This document shows, one piece after another, positions 1,962 through 20,703 of a DNA stretch of 64,000 bases (the stretch's first letter is position 1; the number at the start of each line of letters is the position of its first letter). The DNA lies in the NCBI GenBank assembly GCA_964642835.1, contig CAZXQA010000001.1, forward strand, positions 202,831 to 266,830, in the 5' to 3' direction. Source of the DNA: an uncultured Candidatus Saccharibacteria bacterium (GTDB lineage Bacteria > Patescibacteriota > Minisyncoccia > Phycocordibacterales > Zambryskibacteraceae). The notes below the pieces were generated by a model that ran no database searches, was not told the DNA's origin, and was given only the letters and a program-made list of their open reading frames with translations. A program made the position numbers and the translations under genes.

Positions 1962-2447
1962 ATGAATACAAACTTTGCGGAAGCGACTCGGGAGGCTCTT
2001 GAATACATGAGAACTCGCACGTGTGTTGGTATGGTGGCCACGATAGGGGCGCATGCCCAACCGTATCTTTCGCCTGTCTATTACGCCATGGGTAACGACT
2101 TCGAAGTGTACTTCCTCACTGGTAAGAACACTCACAAAGCCGAGAATATCGAGTTAAACAACAAAGTAGCTTTCTCGGTTGGTACAGGGCCGGAATACAT
2201 CAGCGTCATGATCCGTGGTACGGCGAGCATTCCGGGAAGTGAAGAGGAGGAGCGCGCTTTCGCTCGTCTCAAGGATATTTTCGAAAAGAATGACGTGAAG
2301 AATTGGCCTCTCCGTACCCTTGATGATCTCAAGGATCAGAACCTTGTTCTCTACAAGATTACTCCAGAGAAGGTCACCTTCCTCAACATGAACTCCACCG
2401 AAGAGCCTAAGACCCACGCCGACCATCTCTACCACCTCGTCGACTAG
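1962..2447 (+). CDS. pyridoxamine 5'-phosphate oxidase-like FMN-binding split-barrel protein (general stress protein 26-like)
   Basis: size and pattern of PNPOx-like family; no catalytic assignment possible from sequence alone. Confidence 0.55.
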   Translation: MNTNFAEATREALEYMRTRTCVGMVATIGAHAQPYLSPVYYAMGNDFEVYFLTGKNTHKAENIELNNKVAFSVGTGPEYISVMIRGTASIPGSEEEERAFARLKDIFEKNDVKNWPLRTLDDLKDQNLVLYKITPEKVTFLNMNSTEEPKTHADHLYHLVD

Positions 2448-2520
2448 GGGAGACTACTTGACACTTTCTCGTATTTTTTATATTGTATAGAGGTATAGGG
2501 TTATCTCCTCTACGTTACGC

Positions 2521-3786
2521 ATGTATAGACCAGGGTCAAACAACAGCGGACGCGCTTCGAGCGCTCCTCGCGCCGGCGGTAAGCCGTCCTTCAGGGGCGG
2601 TTTTGGTGCTGGCTCACGCGGTGCTCGTCCAGGTGGTCGTGGTGGTGCTCGCCCGGGTCGCAGCCGCTTTGCGGACAAGTCTTTCTCCGACCTTTCTAAA
2701 TTCGTGAATAAAGTTTCTGTCGTCGAAGAGGCCGAAGTCTTTGTCCCCGAACACACCTTCACTGATTTCCTAATCGCCGAGAAGCTCAAACAAAACATTT
2801 TGACGAAGGGCTACACGCTCCCGACGCCGATTCAGGATAAGGTTATCCCGCACATTCTTCGTCGCGAAGATGTCGTGGGTATCGCGAACACAGGTACCGG
2901 TAAGACCGCCGCCTTCCTCATCCCTCTCATCGACAAGGTGCTTCGGGATGGCAATCAGAACGTGCTTATCATGGTCCCGACGCGCGAGCTCGCGGGTCAG
3001 ATTCGCGACGAATTGTCTGGATTCACGAGTGGTATGAGCATCTGGTCGGTGGTATGCGTCGGCGGCACCTCGATCGTGCCTCAGATCAAGGCTTTGCGAC
3101 ACAAGAATCAGTTCGTGATCGGCACGCCTGGTCGCTTGAAGGACCTTATGGAGCAGGGCTACCTTCGTTTGAACGAGTACGGCACTGTGGTCCTCGACGA
3201 AGCGGACCGCATGCTCGACATGGGCTTCATTAACGACGTGAAGATGATGCTCGGGAAGCTTCCGGCTGACCGTCACACCCTCTTCTTCTCCGCGACGACT
3301 ACGCCCGAGATCACAGGCCTCATTTCCAAATTCTTGAAGCAGCCGGTTACCATTTCCGTTAAAACACGCGATACCTCTGGCTCGATCGACCAGGATGTTG
3401 TTCGCGTCGCTCATCACGAAGATAAGATTGGTAAGCTCGCCGATCTGCTTCGCACCGCCGATTTCTCGAAGGTGCTCGTCTTCGGCAAGACCAAACACGG
3501 CGTCGAGAAGCTCGCTAAGGCTCTCACTACCATGGGTCTGCGTGCCGAATCCATTCACGGGAACAAAAATTTCAATAAACGCCAACAGGCTTTGAGTCAG
3601 TTTAAAGATAACAAGGTGAAGATCCTCGTGGCGACCGACGTCGCCGCGCGCGGTCTCGACATTGCCGACGTCTCTCACGTTATTAACTTCGATTTGCCAG
3701 CTACGTACGAAGACTACATTCACCGCATCGGCCGCACTGGCCGCGGGGGCAAGAAGGGCAACGCTCTCACGTTTGTCCAAGGTTAA
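2521..3786 (+). CDS. DEAD-box ATP-dependent RNA helicase with N-terminal Arg/Gly-rich extension
   Basis: Q-motif, Walker A NTGTGKTAAF, DEAD box VVLDEADRMLDMGF, SAT, HRIGRTGRGG motif VI. Confidence 0.9.
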   Translation: MYRPGSNNSGRASSAPRAGGKPSFRGGFGAGSRGARPGGRGGARPGRSRFADKSFSDLSKFVNKVSVVEEAEVFVPEHTFTDFLIAEKLKQNILTKGYTLPTPIQDKVIPHILRREDVVGIANTGTGKTAAFLIPLIDKVLRDGNQNVLIMVPTRELAGQIRDELSGFTSGMSIWSVVCVGGTSIVPQIKALRHKNQFVIGTPGRLKDLMEQGYLRLNEYGTVVLDEADRMLDMGFINDVKMMLGKLPADRHTLFFSATTTPEITGLISKFLKQPVTISVKTRDTSGSIDQDVVRVAHHEDKIGKLADLLRTADFSKVLVFGKTKHGVEKLAKALTTMGLRAESIHGNKNFNKRQQALSQFKDNKVKILVATDVAARGLDIADVSHVINFDLPATYEDYIHRIGRTGRGGKKGNALTFVQG

Positions 3787-3850
3787 TCCCCTAGGTGAGG
3801 GTGGCTTTATTTTTCTCTGTGAGTAGGGGATAATACGAAGATTCAACTAT

Positions 3851-4738
3851 ATGAATATGAAAAACAACAAGAACGTGTGGGTCATTGCAGGCGCGATTGT
3901 AACGATTCTCGTGATCTGGGCCCTTGTGCATGTCTCGAGAAGCTCCCGCACTCTCCTTGGTTCGGCTACGTACTTCTGTGACGCTGGTAAATCGATCGAA
4001 GCAAAGTTCTATAGTGGCAAGGAAATGGAAGCTCCTCTTCCAGGCGAGATGCCTCAGCCTACAGGTACGCTTGATGTCTCTCTTGATAACGGCCCTGTCA
4101 TGAATCTTCGCCAGACGATTTCCGCAGATGGTGTTCGTTATGCCAATAGCGATGAGTCCTTAGTAGTTTGGAGTAAGGGTACGACCGTACTCGTCATGAG
4201 AAATAACACCATGGATCTTGCGTATACCAACTGCGATGCTGCGCGCCTTGCGAACGCGACTTCCACTCCCGCCCAACCTCTTCCCACGACACCTTTGAAA
4301 CCCGCTCCACCCGCTCCTGCTGAACCAGTAGCTTGCACCATGGAAGCAAGAATTTGTCCTGATGGTAGCTATGTGGGTCGCACGGGCCCGAAGTGCGAAT
4401 TTAGTGCTTGCCCAACTATGGTTGGTCAGGTTGATCTGGGCACACTCTCAGTGGGGCAAACGAGAGTTATTAACGGTGTCTCTATCTCCGTCAATAAAGT
4501 AGTCGAAGACAGTCGCTGCCCATCGAACGTTCAGTGTATCCAGGCCGGACGCGCGCTCGTTTCTGTGACCTTGGCAGCTGGAACAGAGGCGAATACAGTG
4601 AACCTTTCTTCTCAGCCGGTAGTACCATATGTCTTCGGAGGCTCGAAGATTTCCCTCATCGAAGTATTGCCTGAGCGTCATGAGACGACGCTTCCCACGC
4701 AATCAAGTTACCGCCTGACCTTCCGAGTCGAGAAATAA
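3851..4738 (+). CDS. membrane-anchored protein with MliC-like (lysozyme inhibitor) domain, Pro-rich linker and Cys-containing C-terminal domain
   Basis: N-terminal TM helix; CDAGKSIEAKFYSG...SADGVRYANSDESLVVWSKG pattern resembles MliC family; rest unassigned. Confidence 0.5.
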   Translation: MNMKNNKNVWVIAGAIVTILVIWALVHVSRSSRTLLGSATYFCDAGKSIEAKFYSGKEMEAPLPGEMPQPTGTLDVSLDNGPVMNLRQTISADGVRYANSDESLVVWSKGTTVLVMRNNTMDLAYTNCDAARLANATSTPAQPLPTTPLKPAPPAPAEPVACTMEARICPDGSYVGRTGPKCEFSACPTMVGQVDLGTLSVGQTRVINGVSISVNKVVEDSRCPSNVQCIQAGRALVSVTLAAGTEANTVNLSSQPVVPYVFGGSKISLIEVLPERHETTLPTQSSYRLTFRVEK

Positions 4739-4740
4739 AC

Positions 4741-4777
4741 AAACAACACTGCCACCAAGAGGTGGCAGTGTTGTTTA
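4741..4777. terminator. bidirectional terminator between convergent genes
   Basis: AACAACACTGCCACC-AAGA-GGTGGCAGTGTTGTT perfect 15-bp hairpin flanked by A-run and T-run. Confidence 0.65.
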
Positions 4778-4806
4778 GAGTGGCGTGCGGTATCAATTAC
4801 TTGATC

Positions 4807-5166
4807 CTAGTGTGCTTCACCGAACTTCATATGGCCGGGGCCGCGAGGACCAAAGGCCCCGAGATCACCTGGTTTATGAGCGGCTCGTTTGTCGGCTTGG
4901 GCTTGGGTGATCTTACCTTCCTTCACGAGAGTGGCGAGATGTTCCTTCATCTTCGCTTCCATTTCGGCACGCCGGGCTTCAAATTCTGCCTTCACAACCG
5001 CTTCCACGTCGGCGGCATTGAGGTTAAATTTGGTGGCGATGGCATTCACAAGGCCCGACATGGGATTCTGCGGTGTCGCGTCGGCTGCGAAGACCGCTGT
5101 CGCACCGGTCGCGGCAAGGCCGAGGCCGACCGCGCCCGCGACGATCATTCTTGTTTTGTTCTTCAT
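4807..5166 (-). CDS. small secreted protein (signal peptide plus helical Ala/Lys/Glu-rich domain), divergent from ECF sigma gene
   Basis: MKNKTRMIVAGAVGLGLAATGATAVFAADA signal peptide; follows bidirectional terminator; strand-consistent spacing. Confidence 0.5.
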   Translation of the reverse strand: MKNKTRMIVAGAVGLGLAATGATAVFAADATPQNPMSGLVNAIATKFNLNAADVEAVVKAEFEARRAEMEAKMKEHLATLVKEGKITQAQADKRAAHKPGDLGAFGPRGPGHMKFGEAH

Positions 5167-5280
5167 CGTGTGTGGTTAACTCATAAGACAGCTAGCCTGT
5201 CATCCAGTTACTACAGCGAGGAAGGGGATTTATTTCATGAAATATTTCGTCTATATCGTTGTAGTAGTATGGAAGTCTTC

Positions 5281-5820
5281 ATGAGCGACCTTACCGACGA
5301 AGAAATCGCGAGACGCGTCAAAGCAGGCGAGACCTACTGGTTCTCGCTTCTTGTCGAGCGTTACGAAGCACGACTCTCGCGGTATGCTCGGAAGTTCCTC
5401 TTCGGGATTGAAGACACTGAGGATTTACTGCAAGAAGTTTTCGTGAAAGCCTTTACCAATATTCAAAGTTTCGACGGCAAGCGTCGCTTCTCACCCTGGA
5501 TCTATCGCATCGCTCACAACGAGTTCGTGAACGCGCTCAAGAAGCGCAAGCATGAGGCGTTGCCGTTCTTTGATCTTGATACGATCTTTCCTCATCCGGA
5601 GCCGGAAGAAGTTTCCCGCGAGGACTTGCGACCGATGCTCGAGCAAGCTCTCGACCGGATTGACGCCAAGTATCGCGAGCCCTTGGTGTTGTATTATTAC
5701 GAAAATTTAGAATACAAAGAGATTGCCGACGTGCTTCGCATCCCCATTTCCACGGTGGGAGTAAGGATTAAGCGAGGACGCGAGGCGCTCAAGAAAATAG
5801 TGACCACCGACCATGATTGA
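5281..5820 (+). CDS. RNA polymerase sigma-70 family ECF sigma factor
   Basis: region 2 (FSPWIYRIAHNEFVNALKKRK) and region 4 HTH (LEYKEIADVLRIPISTVGVRIKRGREALKK); the long upstream ORF extension looks non-coding, ATG at 5281 (or 5269). Confidence 0.85.
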   Translation: MSDLTDEEIARRVKAGETYWFSLLVERYEARLSRYARKFLFGIEDTEDLLQEVFVKAFTNIQSFDGKRRFSPWIYRIAHNEFVNALKKRKHEALPFFDLDTIFPHPEPEEVSREDLRPMLEQALDRIDAKYREPLVLYYYENLEYKEIADVLRIPISTVGVRIKRGREALKKIVTTDHD

Positions 5821-17079: not shown

Positions 17080-17634
17080 ATGTCATTCATCACCATCATT
17101 TTGATCATCGTGGCTGTGTTTGTGCTCTGGATTATCTTTGCGTACAACTCCTTTATCCGCCTCATCAACCGCGGTAAGGAAGCCTGGTCGGATATCGACA
17201 TCCAGCTCAAGCGACGCTACGACCTCATCCCGAACCTGGTGAATACCGTCAAGGCCTATGCTCTCCACGAGGCTCAAGCCTTCGAAAACGTTACCAAGGC
17301 TCGCACCGCCGCCATGAACGCGGGCACCTTGGCGGAAAAGAGCCAGGCCGAGAACATGCTCACAGGCGCCCTCAAATCTCTCTTCGCCGTCTCGGAAGCG
17401 TATCCGGATCTTAAGGCGAATCAGAACTTCTTGAACCTTCAGAACGAACTCTCCGACACCGAGAACAAGATTCAAGCCGCTCGTCGCTTCTACAACGGGA
17501 ACGTCCGCGATCTCAACACGAAGATCGAAACCTTCCCCAACAACATGATCGCGAACTTCTTCCGCGTCTCGAAGATGGAATTCTTCCAGCTCGAATCTGA
17601 AGCCGAACGAGAACCGGTCAAGGTTCAGTTTTAA
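17080..17634 (+). CDS. LemA family protein
   Basis: N-terminal TM plus LemA pattern (NSFIRL...DIDIQLKRRYDLIPNLV). Confidence 0.85.
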   Translation: MSFITIILIIVAVFVLWIIFAYNSFIRLINRGKEAWSDIDIQLKRRYDLIPNLVNTVKAYALHEAQAFENVTKARTAAMNAGTLAEKSQAENMLTGALKSLFAVSEAYPDLKANQNFLNLQNELSDTENKIQAARRFYNGNVRDLNTKIETFPNNMIANFFRVSKMEFFQLESEAEREPVKVQF

Positions 17635-18521
17635 TGTCGACACTCTACACGCATCAAGCAGAGAACTCCTGGAAGACCTGGGGCTTCATGGCCCTTTTCT
17701 TCGCGCTCATTGGACTCGTGGGATACGTCTTTGCCGCCGTAGAGAATAATCCGAGCTTCTTGTATATCGCCTTTGGGATCGCTCTTCTTCTGAACATCTT
17801 CTCCTACTGGTATGCGGACAAAATCGTCTTGAAGCTTCATAAAGCGAAACCCGTTACGCGTGCTGAGTACTTCGACCTCTGGAACGCGACCGAGAACCTG
17901 GCCATTACTGCCGGTCTTCCCATGCCGAAGCTCTACGTGGTGGAGGACGCGGCGCCGAACGCCTTTGCCACGGGGCGCGACAAGGAGCACGCCGTCGTTT
18001 GTGTCACCACCGGACTCCTCGCCATTCTCGACAAGACTGAGCTTGAGGGGGTGATTGCTCATGAGCTCTCTCATATTGGGAACCGAGACATGCTTCTCTC
18101 GACCGTAGTGGTGGTGCTCGTCGGCTTCATCGCTATTCTCTCCGACATGTTCCGTCGCTCAGCTTTCCTTGGTGGGCATCGTGATAGAGAAAACAACCAG
18201 GCGAATGGCATCCTTTTCGTAATTGGGATCATTGTTTCTCTGCTTGCTCCTCTGGCCGCGACTCTTATCCAACTTGCCATTTCTCGCAAGCGCGAGTTCC
18301 TCGCCGACGCTTCCGGCGCGCTTCTCACTCGATATCCGGAAGGCTTGGCGAGTGCGTTGAGGAAAATTTCTATGCATGGCGCTCCGCTTCGCACCGCTAC
18401 CAATGCCACGGCGCATCTCTTTATCGCGAATCCCTTTGCGGGGAAGAGTTCTGGCCTCGCGAAGCTTTTCATGACCCATCCACCGGTCAATGAGCGCATC
18501 CAAGCTCTCCTCGGTAAATAA
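17634..18521 (+). CDS. htpX: zinc metalloprotease HtpX homologue (M48 family)
   Basis: HELSHI (HExxH) in context AHELSHIGNRD, four TM helices, start overlaps lemA stop (TAATG). Confidence 0.85.
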   Translation: MSTLYTHQAENSWKTWGFMALFFALIGLVGYVFAAVENNPSFLYIAFGIALLLNIFSYWYADKIVLKLHKAKPVTRAEYFDLWNATENLAITAGLPMPKLYVVEDAAPNAFATGRDKEHAVVCVTTGLLAILDKTELEGVIAHELSHIGNRDMLLSTVVVVLVGFIAILSDMFRRSAFLGGHRDRENNQANGILFVIGIIVSLLAPLAATLIQLAISRKREFLADASGALLTRYPEGLASALRKISMHGAPLRTATNATAHLFIANPFAGKSSGLAKLFMTHPPVNERIQALLGK

Positions 18522-18671
18522 TTCTTGCTTCTTTATTAGGGGAGGAGTATCGTTAATTCAGGCCTCGTTCCTCGGAGCCGTGCGCTCCGGTTCATTAACC
18601 GATCCATGGAGGTACCCTATTGAGGTAACCTATTTCTGGCTCATCTCCCGCTCCTAAGGTTGATTGGTACC

Positions 18672-18707
18672 AAAAGCGGGCCCTCGCAAGGGGCCCGCTT
18701 TATTTAT
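18672..18707 (+). terminator. rho-independent terminator after htpX
   Basis: AAGCGGGCCC-TCGCAA-GGGGCCCGCTT then TATTTAT. Confidence 0.65.
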
Positions 18708-18746
18708 ATTGAAAATCCGCCTCTTTTGAGCCATGTATTGACCCGC

Positions 18747-18775
18747 TTGACAAGATTAGATGGGGGGTGTATGAT
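18747..18775 (+). promoter_or_regulatory. near-consensus sigma70 promoter with no ORF downstream
   Basis: TTGACA (18747-18752), 17-nt spacer, TATGAT (18770-18775). Confidence 0.5.
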
Positions 18776-18781
18776 GAAATA

Positions 18782-19095
18782 GTTCCATTGGTGAGATCCA
18801 TTGTTCTTTCCAACAACCGTTGGCTGTGAGGCCAACCAGAAACGGAGTCAGGATGCGCAAGTATCACGACAGCGCGGGGGCGATGCTCCCCCTTAACCTT
18901 TTTTCCTCGGGAAGCAACAAGGCCGCCGTCGGCGCGCCCGTCATCCACGCCGGCGCGACGCCCGGCACGCAGACTCAGTAGCTGCCGGCCGCGCGGCCGT
19001 CAGTCATCCCCTGGTGGCGCAACCTATGACAAGGTCACCTCCGTAATATTCGGAATACCCTAGACCGGCTTCTCTTCAAGAGGCCGGTCTTTTTC
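18782..19095 (+). ncRNA. candidate structured noncoding RNA / leader of unknown class (promoter to terminator, no ORF)
   Basis: mutually exclusive hairpins near 18810-18838, internal GGGGG..CCCCC hairpin plus T-run near 18867-18905, GC-rich core, terminal hairpin GACCGGC..GCCGGTC plus TTTTT at 19062-19095. Confidence 0.35.
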
Positions 19096-19135
19096 TATAC
19101 CTAAACCCTGAGCTGTGCTATAAATGAGTTTCCAC

Positions 19136-19223
19136 GGAGGCGTCGCATAGTGGTCTAGTGCGCACGCTTGGAAAGCGTGTATACCGCAAGGTATCCAGGG
19201 TTCGAATCCCTGCGCCTCCGCCA
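19136..19223 (+). tRNA. tRNA-Ser (anticodon GGA), CCA encoded
   Basis: acceptor GGAGGCG/CGCCTCC, anticodon stem CACGC/GCGTG with loop TTGGAAA, long variable arm ATACC-GCAA-GGTAT, T-loop TTCGAAT. Confidence 0.9.
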
Positions 19224-19244
19224 AAGTAAAGAAGGGCGCGTGAT

Positions 19245-19275
19245 ATAGTTGAGCTGATGAAAAAAATTATTCTTC
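19245..19275 (+). repeat. duplicated leader/start module copy A1 (ATAGTTGAGCTGATGAAAAAAATTATTCTT)
   Basis: about 90% identical to 19759-19789; spans RBS region, ATG and first codons of the downstream gene. Confidence 0.6.
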
Positions 19276-19754
19276 CCGTAATTGCTCTCCTCGTTATCGC
19301 CGCCGGTCTTTTCTACTATGTGAGAGCTCCTTATAGTTACCCATGGATTGTGGGCCCTATTAATGATCTCTATAAAGATTCTTACGCGCAGGAAGGTGAG
19401 AGCGGGCAGAGGTGGGTGTCTCTCGACAAGAAATCGGGCTTCGATATCGTGAGCGTTGCTCAGGGAGATTTAAATAACGATGGGGTGGAAGACGCTTTCG
19501 TCTGGGCGACGTGGTGTGGCGCCTCGTGCGGTAGCCAGTTTGTCGTCATATTGGGAAACTCAACGGGGAAGCCTAGAGCTTTCCAACTGCCTGCGTCCTT
19601 GCCTCCTGAAGGGATTCTCACTTCTAGCGCAAACCAGGACCATGTCAAAAGCATGAACATTGAGAATGGCATACTCAGTATTAATCTTGAAAACCGAGCT
19701 GAAACGCTCCGATATAGATTGTCAGGGAAATTTTTAATTCGAGTGAAGGACTAA
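19257..19754 (+). CDS. small N-terminally membrane-anchored hypothetical protein (1 of 4 in tandem)
   Basis: MKK + hydrophobic helix; lower-GC coding sequence than surroundings. Confidence 0.55.
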   Translation: MKKIILPVIALLVIAAGLFYYVRAPYSYPWIVGPINDLYKDSYAQEGESGQRWVSLDKKSGFDIVSVAQGDLNNDGVEDAFVWATWCGASCGSQFVVILGNSTGKPRAFQLPASLPPEGILTSSANQDHVKSMNIENGILSINLENRAETLRYRLSGKFLIRVKD

Positions 19755-19758
19755 TGTT

Positions 19759-19789
19759 ATAGTTGAGCTTATGAAAAAACTTATTCTTA
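19759..19789 (+). repeat. duplicated leader/start module copy A2
   Basis: ATAGTTGAGCTTATGAAAAAACTTATTCTT matches copy A1. Confidence 0.6.
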
Positions 19790-20148
19790 TAGCTATCGCT
19801 GTTCTCGTTCTTATTGTTGCTGGGGTATTTATGTACGGTATTCGTGAAAATACTGAGGCACTCTTAACTCAAGAACAAGCACAAAATCTCGTGCATACAA
19901 CGTGGGGCGATTGTTCTCAAGGAAATTGTGCTGATGTTGAGGTGAGTGTTACTCAACAGGAGACAGGACAGTATGTAGTTACGGCGATCTTTACTGAGTT
20001 GGATGATTCTACCTCACACACAAAAAAGGTTTCGAGGGCTTCTTTCCAAAACGGTACCTGGATGCTTAGTGAGCCTATCGTTACTCGAGCTTGCCATCGC
20101 GGGCACGTAGACGGAAGTAAAGGCTTCACCTCCGCATTCTGTATATAA
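19771..20148 (+). CDS. small N-terminally membrane-anchored hypothetical protein (2 of 4), Cys-containing
   Basis: MKKLILIAIAVLVLIVAG anchor; no family motif. Confidence 0.55.
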   Translation: MKKLILIAIAVLVLIVAGVFMYGIRENTEALLTQEQAQNLVHTTWGDCSQGNCADVEVSVTQQETGQYVVTAIFTELDDSTSHTKKVSRASFQNGTWMLSEPIVTRACHRGHVDGSKGFTSAFCI

Positions 20149-20159
20149 CTATATTCAAA

Positions 20160-20191
20160 TAACTTCACACGTTAAAACTTATGAAAAAATA
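20160..20191 (+). repeat. duplicated leader/start module copy B1 (TAACTTCACACGTTAAAACTTATGAAAAAATA)
   Basis: 32/32 identical to 20672-20703. Confidence 0.65.
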
Positions 20192-20687
20192 CGCGTTGGT
20201 AGGAATTACTCTTCTCGCTCTCGGTGGGTTGGGGTATTTTATATTGGGGTGGTCTACATATGAGAATAAAGAGTATGGCTTCCGATTCGAATACCCATCC
20301 CGCCTCCACGTTTTAACGAATGGTTCTCAAAATGATGGTTTGATTCAAATAAGCGACAAGAGCGACTTTGAAAAAAATGAAGACGCCTTCCTCATGAAGG
20401 TATACGTCGAAGCAAATTCGTCTACAAATAATCTGAGATCAACTACAGGAGAAAAGAGGTTAGAAATCGCTGCTTTAAAGACGAGGTTGAATGTCCCCGT
20501 TACCGCCGATTTTTCCGGTGATCCTCCGTACGGAATCTATAGTGTTTCTATCCCTCTTGAGGCGCAACATAAGCTGGTGAGGATTACTATCACGATTCCT
20601 CAAAGTGATCTTCCCGAATACGGCGGAGAAAATAGGGATCTAAAACTTGCGAAGGAGATTCTTACAACCTTTAACTTCACACGTTAA
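20181..20687 (+). CDS. small N-terminally membrane-anchored hypothetical protein (3 of 4)
   Basis: MKKYALVGITLLALGGLGYFILGW anchor; the 3' end of this CDS contains repeat copy B2. Confidence 0.55.
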   Translation: MKKYALVGITLLALGGLGYFILGWSTYENKEYGFRFEYPSRLHVLTNGSQNDGLIQISDKSDFEKNEDAFLMKVYVEANSSTNNLRSTTGEKRLEIAALKTRLNVPVTADFSGDPPYGIYSVSIPLEAQHKLVRITITIPQSDLPEYGGENRDLKLAKEILTTFNFTR

Positions 20688-20703
20688 AACTTATGAAAAA
20701 ATA
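20672..20703 (+). repeat. duplicated leader/start module copy B2
   Basis: identical 32-mer to B1; overlaps the last codons of gene 3 and the start of gene 4. Confidence 0.65.

Follow-up and report, generated by a model that had tools for sequence, protein, structure and literature searches.

What is encoded by the roughly 315 nt of GC-rich DNA that lie between the protease gene htpX and a tRNA-Ser(GGA) gene in the 64-kb stretch analysed here (the window)? The host has a Patescibacteria/Parcubacteria-type genome, and the best relatives of its HtpX all come from MAGs of that group. An earlier note, made from the letters alone, had described an orphan promoter-to-terminator unit with no credible open reading frame (ORF), and had offered two readings of it, a stable structured RNA or a riboswitch- or attenuator-like leader. 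Comparison with related genomes allows these two readings to be weighed along with several others.

The outline drawn by the earlier note held up well. The near-perfect sigma70 promoter that it had pointed out (TTGACA-17-TATGAT) matches the consensus at 11 of 12 positions and is one of two sites with at most one mismatch in 64 kb, where 0.13 would be expected. The very GC-rich core, put at about 75% by eye, is the most GC-rich 120-nt stretch of the 53% GC window, and the terminal hairpin with its T-run does stand some 40 nt before tRNA-Ser, with seven G-C pairs among the 12 of its stem. The positions of the near-consensus promoter and of the terminator give the ends of the predicted transcript, at about 18782 and about 19095 (Table 1). 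An extended -10 box further on (TGC-TATAAA, 19116-19124, read by eye) is apparently tRNA-Ser's own. Judged from these signals, the unit is a self-contained, independent promoter-to-terminator gene, presumably transcribed on its own, and not a leader of the tRNA. Several small secreted-looking ORFs come after tRNA-Ser(GGA); the ORFs that start at 20181 and 20693 are preceded by the identical 19-nt sequence acttcacacgttaaaactt (20162-20180 and 20674-20692) and are probably tandem paralogous small secreted-protein genes.

Table 1. Coordinates of the features at the htpX–tRNA-Ser(GGA) locus, in positions of the window
Feature	Position	Strand	Remarks
lemA	17080-17634
htpX (protease gene)	17634-18521
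RNA-1, conserved non-coding stretch	18522-18705	+	ends in a terminator hairpin, 18673-18701
Sigma-70-type promoter	18747-18775	+	TTGACA 18747-18752, 17-nt spacer, TATGAT 18770-18775
Predicted transcript, about 314-315 nt	18782-19095	+	ends predicted from promoter and terminator positions
Parts of the predicted transcript			71-nt leader, 129-nt ORF, 114-nt trailer including the terminator
Leader hairpin GTTGGC/GCCAAC	18819-18836	+	loop TGTGAG in the window, TAAG in L163
Shine-Dalgarno-like GGAG	18844-18847	+	5 nt ahead of the ATG; identical in L163
42-codon ORF (MRKYHDSAGAMLPLNLFSSGSNKAAVGAPVIHAGATPGTQTQ) plus TAG	18853-18981	+	44 codons in L163
GC-rich core	18870-19046		0.74-0.75 GC, against 0.53 in the window
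GGGGGC-GAU-GCUCCCCC hairpin within the ORF	18876-18892	+	'internal terminator' of the earlier note
Anti-SD-like TCACCTCC	19035-19042	+	identical in L163
Intrinsic terminator	19062-19095	+	12-pair stem (19062-19090), 5-nt loop, TTTTT; 100% identical in L163/L171
tRNA-Ser(GGA)	19136-19223		41 nt beyond the terminator

The unit belongs to none of the described families. At the gathering threshold, Rfam 15 finds three tRNAs in the whole window and nothing else. When the threshold is relaxed to E<=10, as in the scan of 18600-19150, an Rfam check proposed by the earlier note, and in that of 18440-18790, the only hits are sX13 (E=6.1, on the terminator) and isrD (E=6.8), neither of them a meaningful family match. 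Rfam matches neither the homologous loci of relatives nor, among its riboswitch families, the unit itself, and ARAGORN reports no tmRNA in the window. These searches agree with the earlier note, which had been unable to recognize SRP RNA, RNase P RNA, tmRNA or 6S RNA by eye. An SRP-like GGAAGCA motif, spotted by eye, was discarded, as it sits in a variable part of the unit and no SRP model matches.

To follow the unit through related genomes, htpX loci were compared (80 from GTDB and 80 from metagenomes; 168 fetched loci with htpX overall). The tRNA-Ser(GGA) gene lies downstream on the same strand in 80 of the 168 (L001-L172), an order widely conserved across Parcubacteria, and the gap between the two genes ranges from 8 to 2518 nt, which makes it a hypervariable slot. 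Neither blastn, nhmmer nor tblastn matched the unit in the htpX loci of the GTDB and metagenome scans. The closest loci from these scans (HtpX 70-71% identical) leave a gap of merely 58-63 nt, and in relatives whose HtpX is 73-76% identical the slot is occupied by GGDEF and/or NUDIX genes. A protein search retrieved one close relative, with an HtpX (P0002) that is 88% identical and a locus (L163, from GCA_020049755.1) that is homologous to the window transcript at 5161-5479 (alignment A2). A near-identical sister contig of L163, L171, also carries the homologous unit. Of the cluster-mate loci, L170, from a third species, lies on a contig that ends inside the promoter, and L172 likewise ends before the unit. 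The unit is known from two species and three sequences; a hunt for further copies by way of the downstream 134-aa protein led to homologues in other genomic contexts. Judging from these loci, it is confined to one genus.

The cargo of the slot in relatives is otherwise unrelated: GGDEF, NUDIX, a CDP-alcohol-phosphatidyltransferase-like ORF, assorted small ORFs, or none. Other units consisting of a promoter, a small ORF and a terminator, all unrelated to that of the window, occupy the same place in L169, L166, L035, L055 and L027, as would be expected if orphan small genes gather in the slot. For example, GC-rich promoter-to-terminator units without called genes are found in L169 (3915-4325, with a 39-codon ORF behind GGAGG) and, twice, in L166 (4900-5112 and 5100-5360); neither the L169 nor the L166 units can be aligned to that of the window. 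In L163, a 147-aa ORF stands between the unit and tRNA-Ser. An ORF of this kind (143-147 aa) is present in L163 (5508-5951) and in L164 (6453-6884), at 76% identity, the same figure as for HtpX of the two genomes; at its 3' end it runs into tRNA-Ser(GGA) by ~20 nt, and it is absent from the window. It has no Pfam match, and a guess that the L163 copy might be a LAGLIDADG endonuclease found no support there.

The tRNA gene itself may also attract foreign DNA. In L169, 22 nt from the 3' end of tRNA-Ser recur as a direct repeat (4438-4459 and 4562-4583) about 100 nt past the tRNA, which has the look of an att-type scar, and in L167 an island with a serine recombinase, an HTH protein and an SNF2 helicase (2100-5413) begins immediately after tRNA-Ser(GGA); this repeat and this island suggest that tRNA-Ser(GGA) serves as an integration site in the group. 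Furthermore, the gap in L061 (4886-5205) has 0.50 GC in a locus of 0.37 GC and opens with what resembles the 5' half of a tRNA (GGAGGAGTGGCTGAGTGGTTTAAGGCG), after which comes a long insert. Possibly a tRNA with an intron stands here, directly ahead of tRNA-Ser.

Between the window and L163, the segment 18522-19100 is 85.5% identical over 602 columns, gaps included, with 91% mean column identity (alignment A1). The differences are strongly clustered, with an index of dispersion of 2.9 where permutation gives 0.83 (P<0.0002), leaving identical runs of 72 nt (18829-18900), 54 nt (18945-18998) and 50 nt (19051-19100); the invariant blocks include GGAGTCAGGATGCGCAAGTATCACGACAGCGC and CACGCCGGCGCGACGCCCGGCACGCAGACTCAG. 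Both promoter hexamers are identical in L163/L171, whereas only 9 of the 17 spacer positions are. Hairpin loops and two pockets, at about 18795-18802 and about 19003-19030, are scrambled between the species. For the same pair of genomes, third codon positions of groES, groEL, lemA and htpX are identical at 0.46-0.66, the intergenic DNA upstream of lemA cannot be aligned, and tRNA-Ser is about 77% identical (counted by eye), with several compensatory changes in its stems. Because the identical runs contrast with these diverged third codon positions and with the scrambled spacer, the alignment points firmly to strong purifying selection on the RNA or DNA sequence of the unit. We take the RNA itself to be the main object of this selection: ~85% of its columns are unchanged in a sister species in which synonymous sites have elsewhere nearly reached saturation.

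A non-functional segment, either recently transferred between the two lineages or decaying from a GGDEF or NUDIX gene, would sit easily in so hypervariable a slot (gap 8-2518 nt), next to a tRNA-Ser with integration scars and islands in relatives, and would suit a core whose GC content is atypical for the genome. Uniform recent ancestry, however, predicts something other than the bimodal divergence seen here, with 9/17 spacer positions and the pocket at about 19003-19030 on one side and changeless runs on the other; frozen blocks beside near-saturated pockets indicate selection, not recent transfer. A pseudogene of the slot's cargo was likewise rejected, as tblastn with the GGDEF, NUDIX and 100-, 143- and 147-aa proteins against the unit gave nothing below E=0.09 and so no residual similarity to GGDEF, NUDIX or other cargo proteins. 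So was an origin from a mobile element, since viral contigs contain no exact blocks of the unit and phage and plasmid collections give no blastn hits. We consider a non-functional segment very unlikely.

The same comparison contradicts a riboswitch or attenuator leader that would switch between anti-terminator and terminator hairpins, the second reading in the earlier note. Its ingredients do exist in the window, both the hairpins that overlap and the internal GC hairpin with Ts after it. Of the two hairpins that the note had taken to be mutually exclusive, only GTTGGC/GCCAAC is kept in L163, where CCAAC/GTTGG is broken (CCATC). The internal GGGGG/CCCCC hairpin is there too, but not as a conserved terminator: its T-run, broken up as TTGTTT in L163, begins 6 nt past the GGGGGC/GCUCCCCC stem, and this stem, invariant in L163, bears one G>C change in L171. 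Moreover, the unit holds no gene further downstream and regulates none beyond its end, its strong terminator precedes a tRNA with an apparent -10 box of its own (by eye), the 147-aa ORF intervenes before the tRNA in L163, and the riboswitch families have no match. With neither the alternative hairpin nor the internal terminator conserved, a leader of this type is hardly credible.

Did the earlier note overlook a gene in finding no credible ORF? This claim did not survive the comparison, as a 42-codon ORF follows GGAG after 5 nt and is conserved as a 44-aa gene called in L163 (P0121; the ORF is also called in L171). Two indels separate the window and L163 versions, both of 3 nt, whereas the seven indels outside the ORF measure 2, 1, 1, 2, 11, 1 and 1 nt; the two in-frame indels by themselves carry p≈0.11. 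Scored with the window's own codon usage, the ORF reaches 0.24 bit/codon, against 0.37±0.20 for real genes and -0.65 and -0.45 for the other frames (p≈0.002 from dinucleotide shuffles), and it is the sole positive-scoring segment of 18522-19100 in any frame. Its GC content at codon positions 1/2/3 is 0.62/0.55/0.86. On the opposite strand, an 82-aa ORF (18700-18948) was rejected, as a 2-nt loop deletion shifts its frame in L163.

The peptide itself (MRKYHDSAGAMLPLNLF ... HAGATPGTQTQ among its segments) is an orphan. A search of 5.8 billion proteins and 1.84 billion cluster representatives returned only the sister-species P0121 and P0126, Pfam gave no match, and AlphaFold modelled it with pLDDT 64, pTM 0.14 and no secondary structure. 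Nor does the pattern of substitution speak for the peptide. Where the same amino acid is encoded, 32 of 34 codons are identical (counted by eye), compared with 0.48-0.68 in neighbouring genes (p<3e-4). Substitutions are spread evenly over the codon positions (about 2, 3-4 and 2, by eye). All variation falls in the middle, at codons 17-31, where dN/dS comes to about 1 (by eye); codons 1-16 and 32-42 are free of any change. With so even a spread and such a dN/dS, the substitutions give no evidence of selection on the peptide.

An ordinary orphan small-protein gene, in which nucleotide conservation merely reflects mRNA stability or expression signals, would account for the codon-usage signal of the ORF as the sole positive-scoring segment, and it would have company in the unrelated promoter–small ORF–terminator units that fill the slot elsewhere (L169, whose 39-aa ORF has GGAGG, L035, L055 and L027). 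Such a gene is, however, hard to reconcile with 32/34 identical synonymous codons (by eye), with untranslated regions that make up 60% of the transcript and are conserved as strongly as the ORF, or with dN/dS about 1 (by eye) where the ORF varies; we hold it to be quite unlikely. The signals around the start codon are also unusual for the genome. Gene starts in the window mostly show a -10-like box 6-12 nt ahead of the start codon and no Shine-Dalgarno sequence (SD), a style in which a 71-nt leader with an SD is atypical for an mRNA. Starts with a TATAAT-like box and no SD are seen, for example, at 1962, 6315, 17080, 19257, 19771, 31751, 48728 and 50817, and GGAG or GAGG stands upstream of 7 of the 55 long ORFs in the window, near the background rate. 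From these starts, leaderless-type expression seems common in this genome.

Much of this would be equally at home in an abundant structured RNA with no coding role at all (a trans-acting sRNA, a protein-binding RNA or an RNP RNA), in which the frame is incidental or a frozen coding relic. Constraint is equal in leader, ORF and trailer and independent of codon position, synonymous sites are frozen, and the neighbouring RNA-1, which has no ORF, is conserved equally well. A very strong promoter and a long leader amid leaderless-type genes, together with a peptide that has neither relatives nor a predicted fold, add to the case, and since stop codons are rare at 75% GC an open frame is expected by chance. 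Against this, within the 580-nt stretch a frame-specific signal of codon usage (p≈0.002) is found in the ORF and nowhere else, both indels in the ORF are multiples of three, and GGAG is correctly spaced before the ATG. Additionally, one SNP in L171 is synonymous yet disrupts a stem pair, and covariation backs no fold. A non-coding RNA is the main rival to the explanation that we favour and a serious one, although on balance we think it unlikely.

How far does the RNA fold? The plus strand folds better than its shuffles in both species (z = -3.07 in the window, -2.63 in L163), and RNAalifold on the two draws 81 pairs with none broken; its two 'compensatory' pairs both fall in a poorly aligned pocket. 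The minimum-free-energy fold computed from the window alone was rejected as the real fold, 12 of its 16 variable pairs being broken in L163. With no informative compensatory changes among three sequences of two species, a defined conserved fold is plausible but unproven. Of the stable structured RNA proposed by the earlier note, the independent unit and the strong purifying selection at the nucleotide level can thus be retained, but not a defined fold; similarly, the homologue comparison that it had suggested brought out nucleotide conservation in L163/L171 but, as to covariation, only the two pairs in the poorly aligned stretch.

Several predicted features recur, all of them invariant and hence uninformative as to pairing. 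In these predictions, the 5' end is paired with sequence just ahead of the terminator, a stem with a GCAA loop on top takes up the AUG, and the stop codon falls in the loop of a hairpin. The predicted fold as a whole is multibranched. The GTTGGC/GCCAAC stem is invariant around a loop of 6 nt in the window and 4 nt in L163. In the trailer, CUCCGU (19039-19044) may pair with ACGGAG (18842-18847) around the SD, to which it is complementary. The overlapping TCACCTCC consists of the same eight letters as the canonical 3' end of bacterial 16S rRNA, the anti-SD; the window itself has no rRNA gene. UCACC may also pair with GGUGA close to the 5' end.

Taken as a whole, we favour a genus-specific structured RNA with a small ORF whose translation is controlled by structure, in other words a dual-function sRNA or a gated small-protein mRNA. 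We hold this explanation tentatively, at somewhat less than an even chance, and its transcription, fold, translation and any target are deduced from sequence. A near-consensus promoter would drive a GC-rich transcript of ~314 nt that ends at the intrinsic terminator, and the 42-44-codon ORF of this transcript would be translated under structural control. The AUG would be held in a hairpin stem, GGAG would pair with the conserved CUCCGU or anti-SD-like segment of the 3' trailer, and the 5' end would pair with sequence just upstream of the terminator. It is from these three pairings together that we infer control of translation by structure.

Three species (L163/L171 and L170) share the conserved stretch directly upstream, RNA-1; with indels of 2, 11, 1 and 1 nt it can contain no conserved ORF. 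Rfam gives no hit to RNA-1, its folding z is only -1.5, and compensatory pairs are absent. It may be the 3' UTR of htpX or a second small RNA, and is treated here as a neighbour of the unit. RNA-1 was tried as an antitoxin or partner of the unit (RNA-2), and was rejected because the duplex energy is not above that of shuffles. A type I toxin-antitoxin pair fails on the same duplex and on two further grounds: in the peptide MRKYHDSAGAMLPLNLFSSGSNKAAVGAPVIHAGATPGTQTQ there is neither a hydrophobic run of about 18 residues nor a membrane helix, and the AlphaFold model has no helix; and no promoter-like site exists on the minus strand of 18000-19800. RNA-1 would find a place as a possible second, co-evolving component if the unit represented a new class of abundant structured Parcubacteria RNA, binding RNA polymerase, the ribosome or a protein, with an incidental ORF and slower evolution than the adjacent tRNA as most of its surface would be contacted. 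We rate such a class as rather unlikely.

A search of the literature brought up neither regulatory RNAs nor small proteins described from the Candidate Phyla Radiation, nor any sRNAs described from Patescibacteria/Parcubacteria. Genomes of the Candidate Phyla Radiation are tiny and have little spare DNA, and the window holds mostly leaderless-type genes, a setting that makes a 315-nt unit conspicuous. As a lineage-specific regulator or as an orphan small gene, possibly born recently, the unit is a concrete candidate that can be put to the test, and it may well become the first regulatory RNA or small protein to be studied in this group. The slot between htpX and tRNA-Ser(GGA) may be a birthplace of such genes. 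As the unit is restricted to a single genus, of which two species have been sampled, and does not point to a new mechanism, its value is local rather than general.

Among known systems, the abundant housekeeping or regulatory RNAs (6S RNA, Ms1, SRP RNA, RNase P RNA and tmRNA) share with the unit a strong promoter, high GC content relative to the genome, paired termini, and a primary sequence more conserved than the neighbouring tRNA. However, the unit shows no meaningful Rfam match to them at E<=10 and no tmRNA by ARAGORN, it is missing from the same locus in about 170 relatives, and its predicted multibranched fold differs from the rod of 6S RNA. In the mRNAs of hok-type type I toxins and in that of Staphylococcus aureus icaR, with the anti-SD of its 3'-UTR, expression is gated by pairing between the 5' and 3' ends or between SD and anti-SD. 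The unit resembles these mRNAs in its predicted pairing of 5' and 3' ends, in a 3' CUCC segment complementary to the SD of the ORF, and in a small ORF within a highly structured, nucleotide-conserved RNA. It differs from them in a peptide that is not hydrophobic and has no membrane helix, and in that no antisense promoter or partner RNA was found, the complementarity of RNA-1 and RNA-2 being not above shuffles.

In its presumed way of working, the unit would be most like the dual-function sRNAs (PMC8916003, PMC8152036, PMC10730256), a class that includes SR1/SR1P and Spot 42/SpfP (PMC8152036, PMC8916003). It differs from them in its host, a Patescibacteria/Parcubacteria MAG, and has no sequence or Rfam relationship to them; its translation, moreover, is a prediction. 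Like SR1/SR1P of Bacillus subtilis, Spot 42/SpfP and SgrS/SgrT of Escherichia coli and RNAIII/hld of S. aureus, the unit runs from an independent promoter to a terminator over a few hundred nucleotides and has a short ORF within a structured RNA, and in both the sequence is constrained beyond what the peptide would need.
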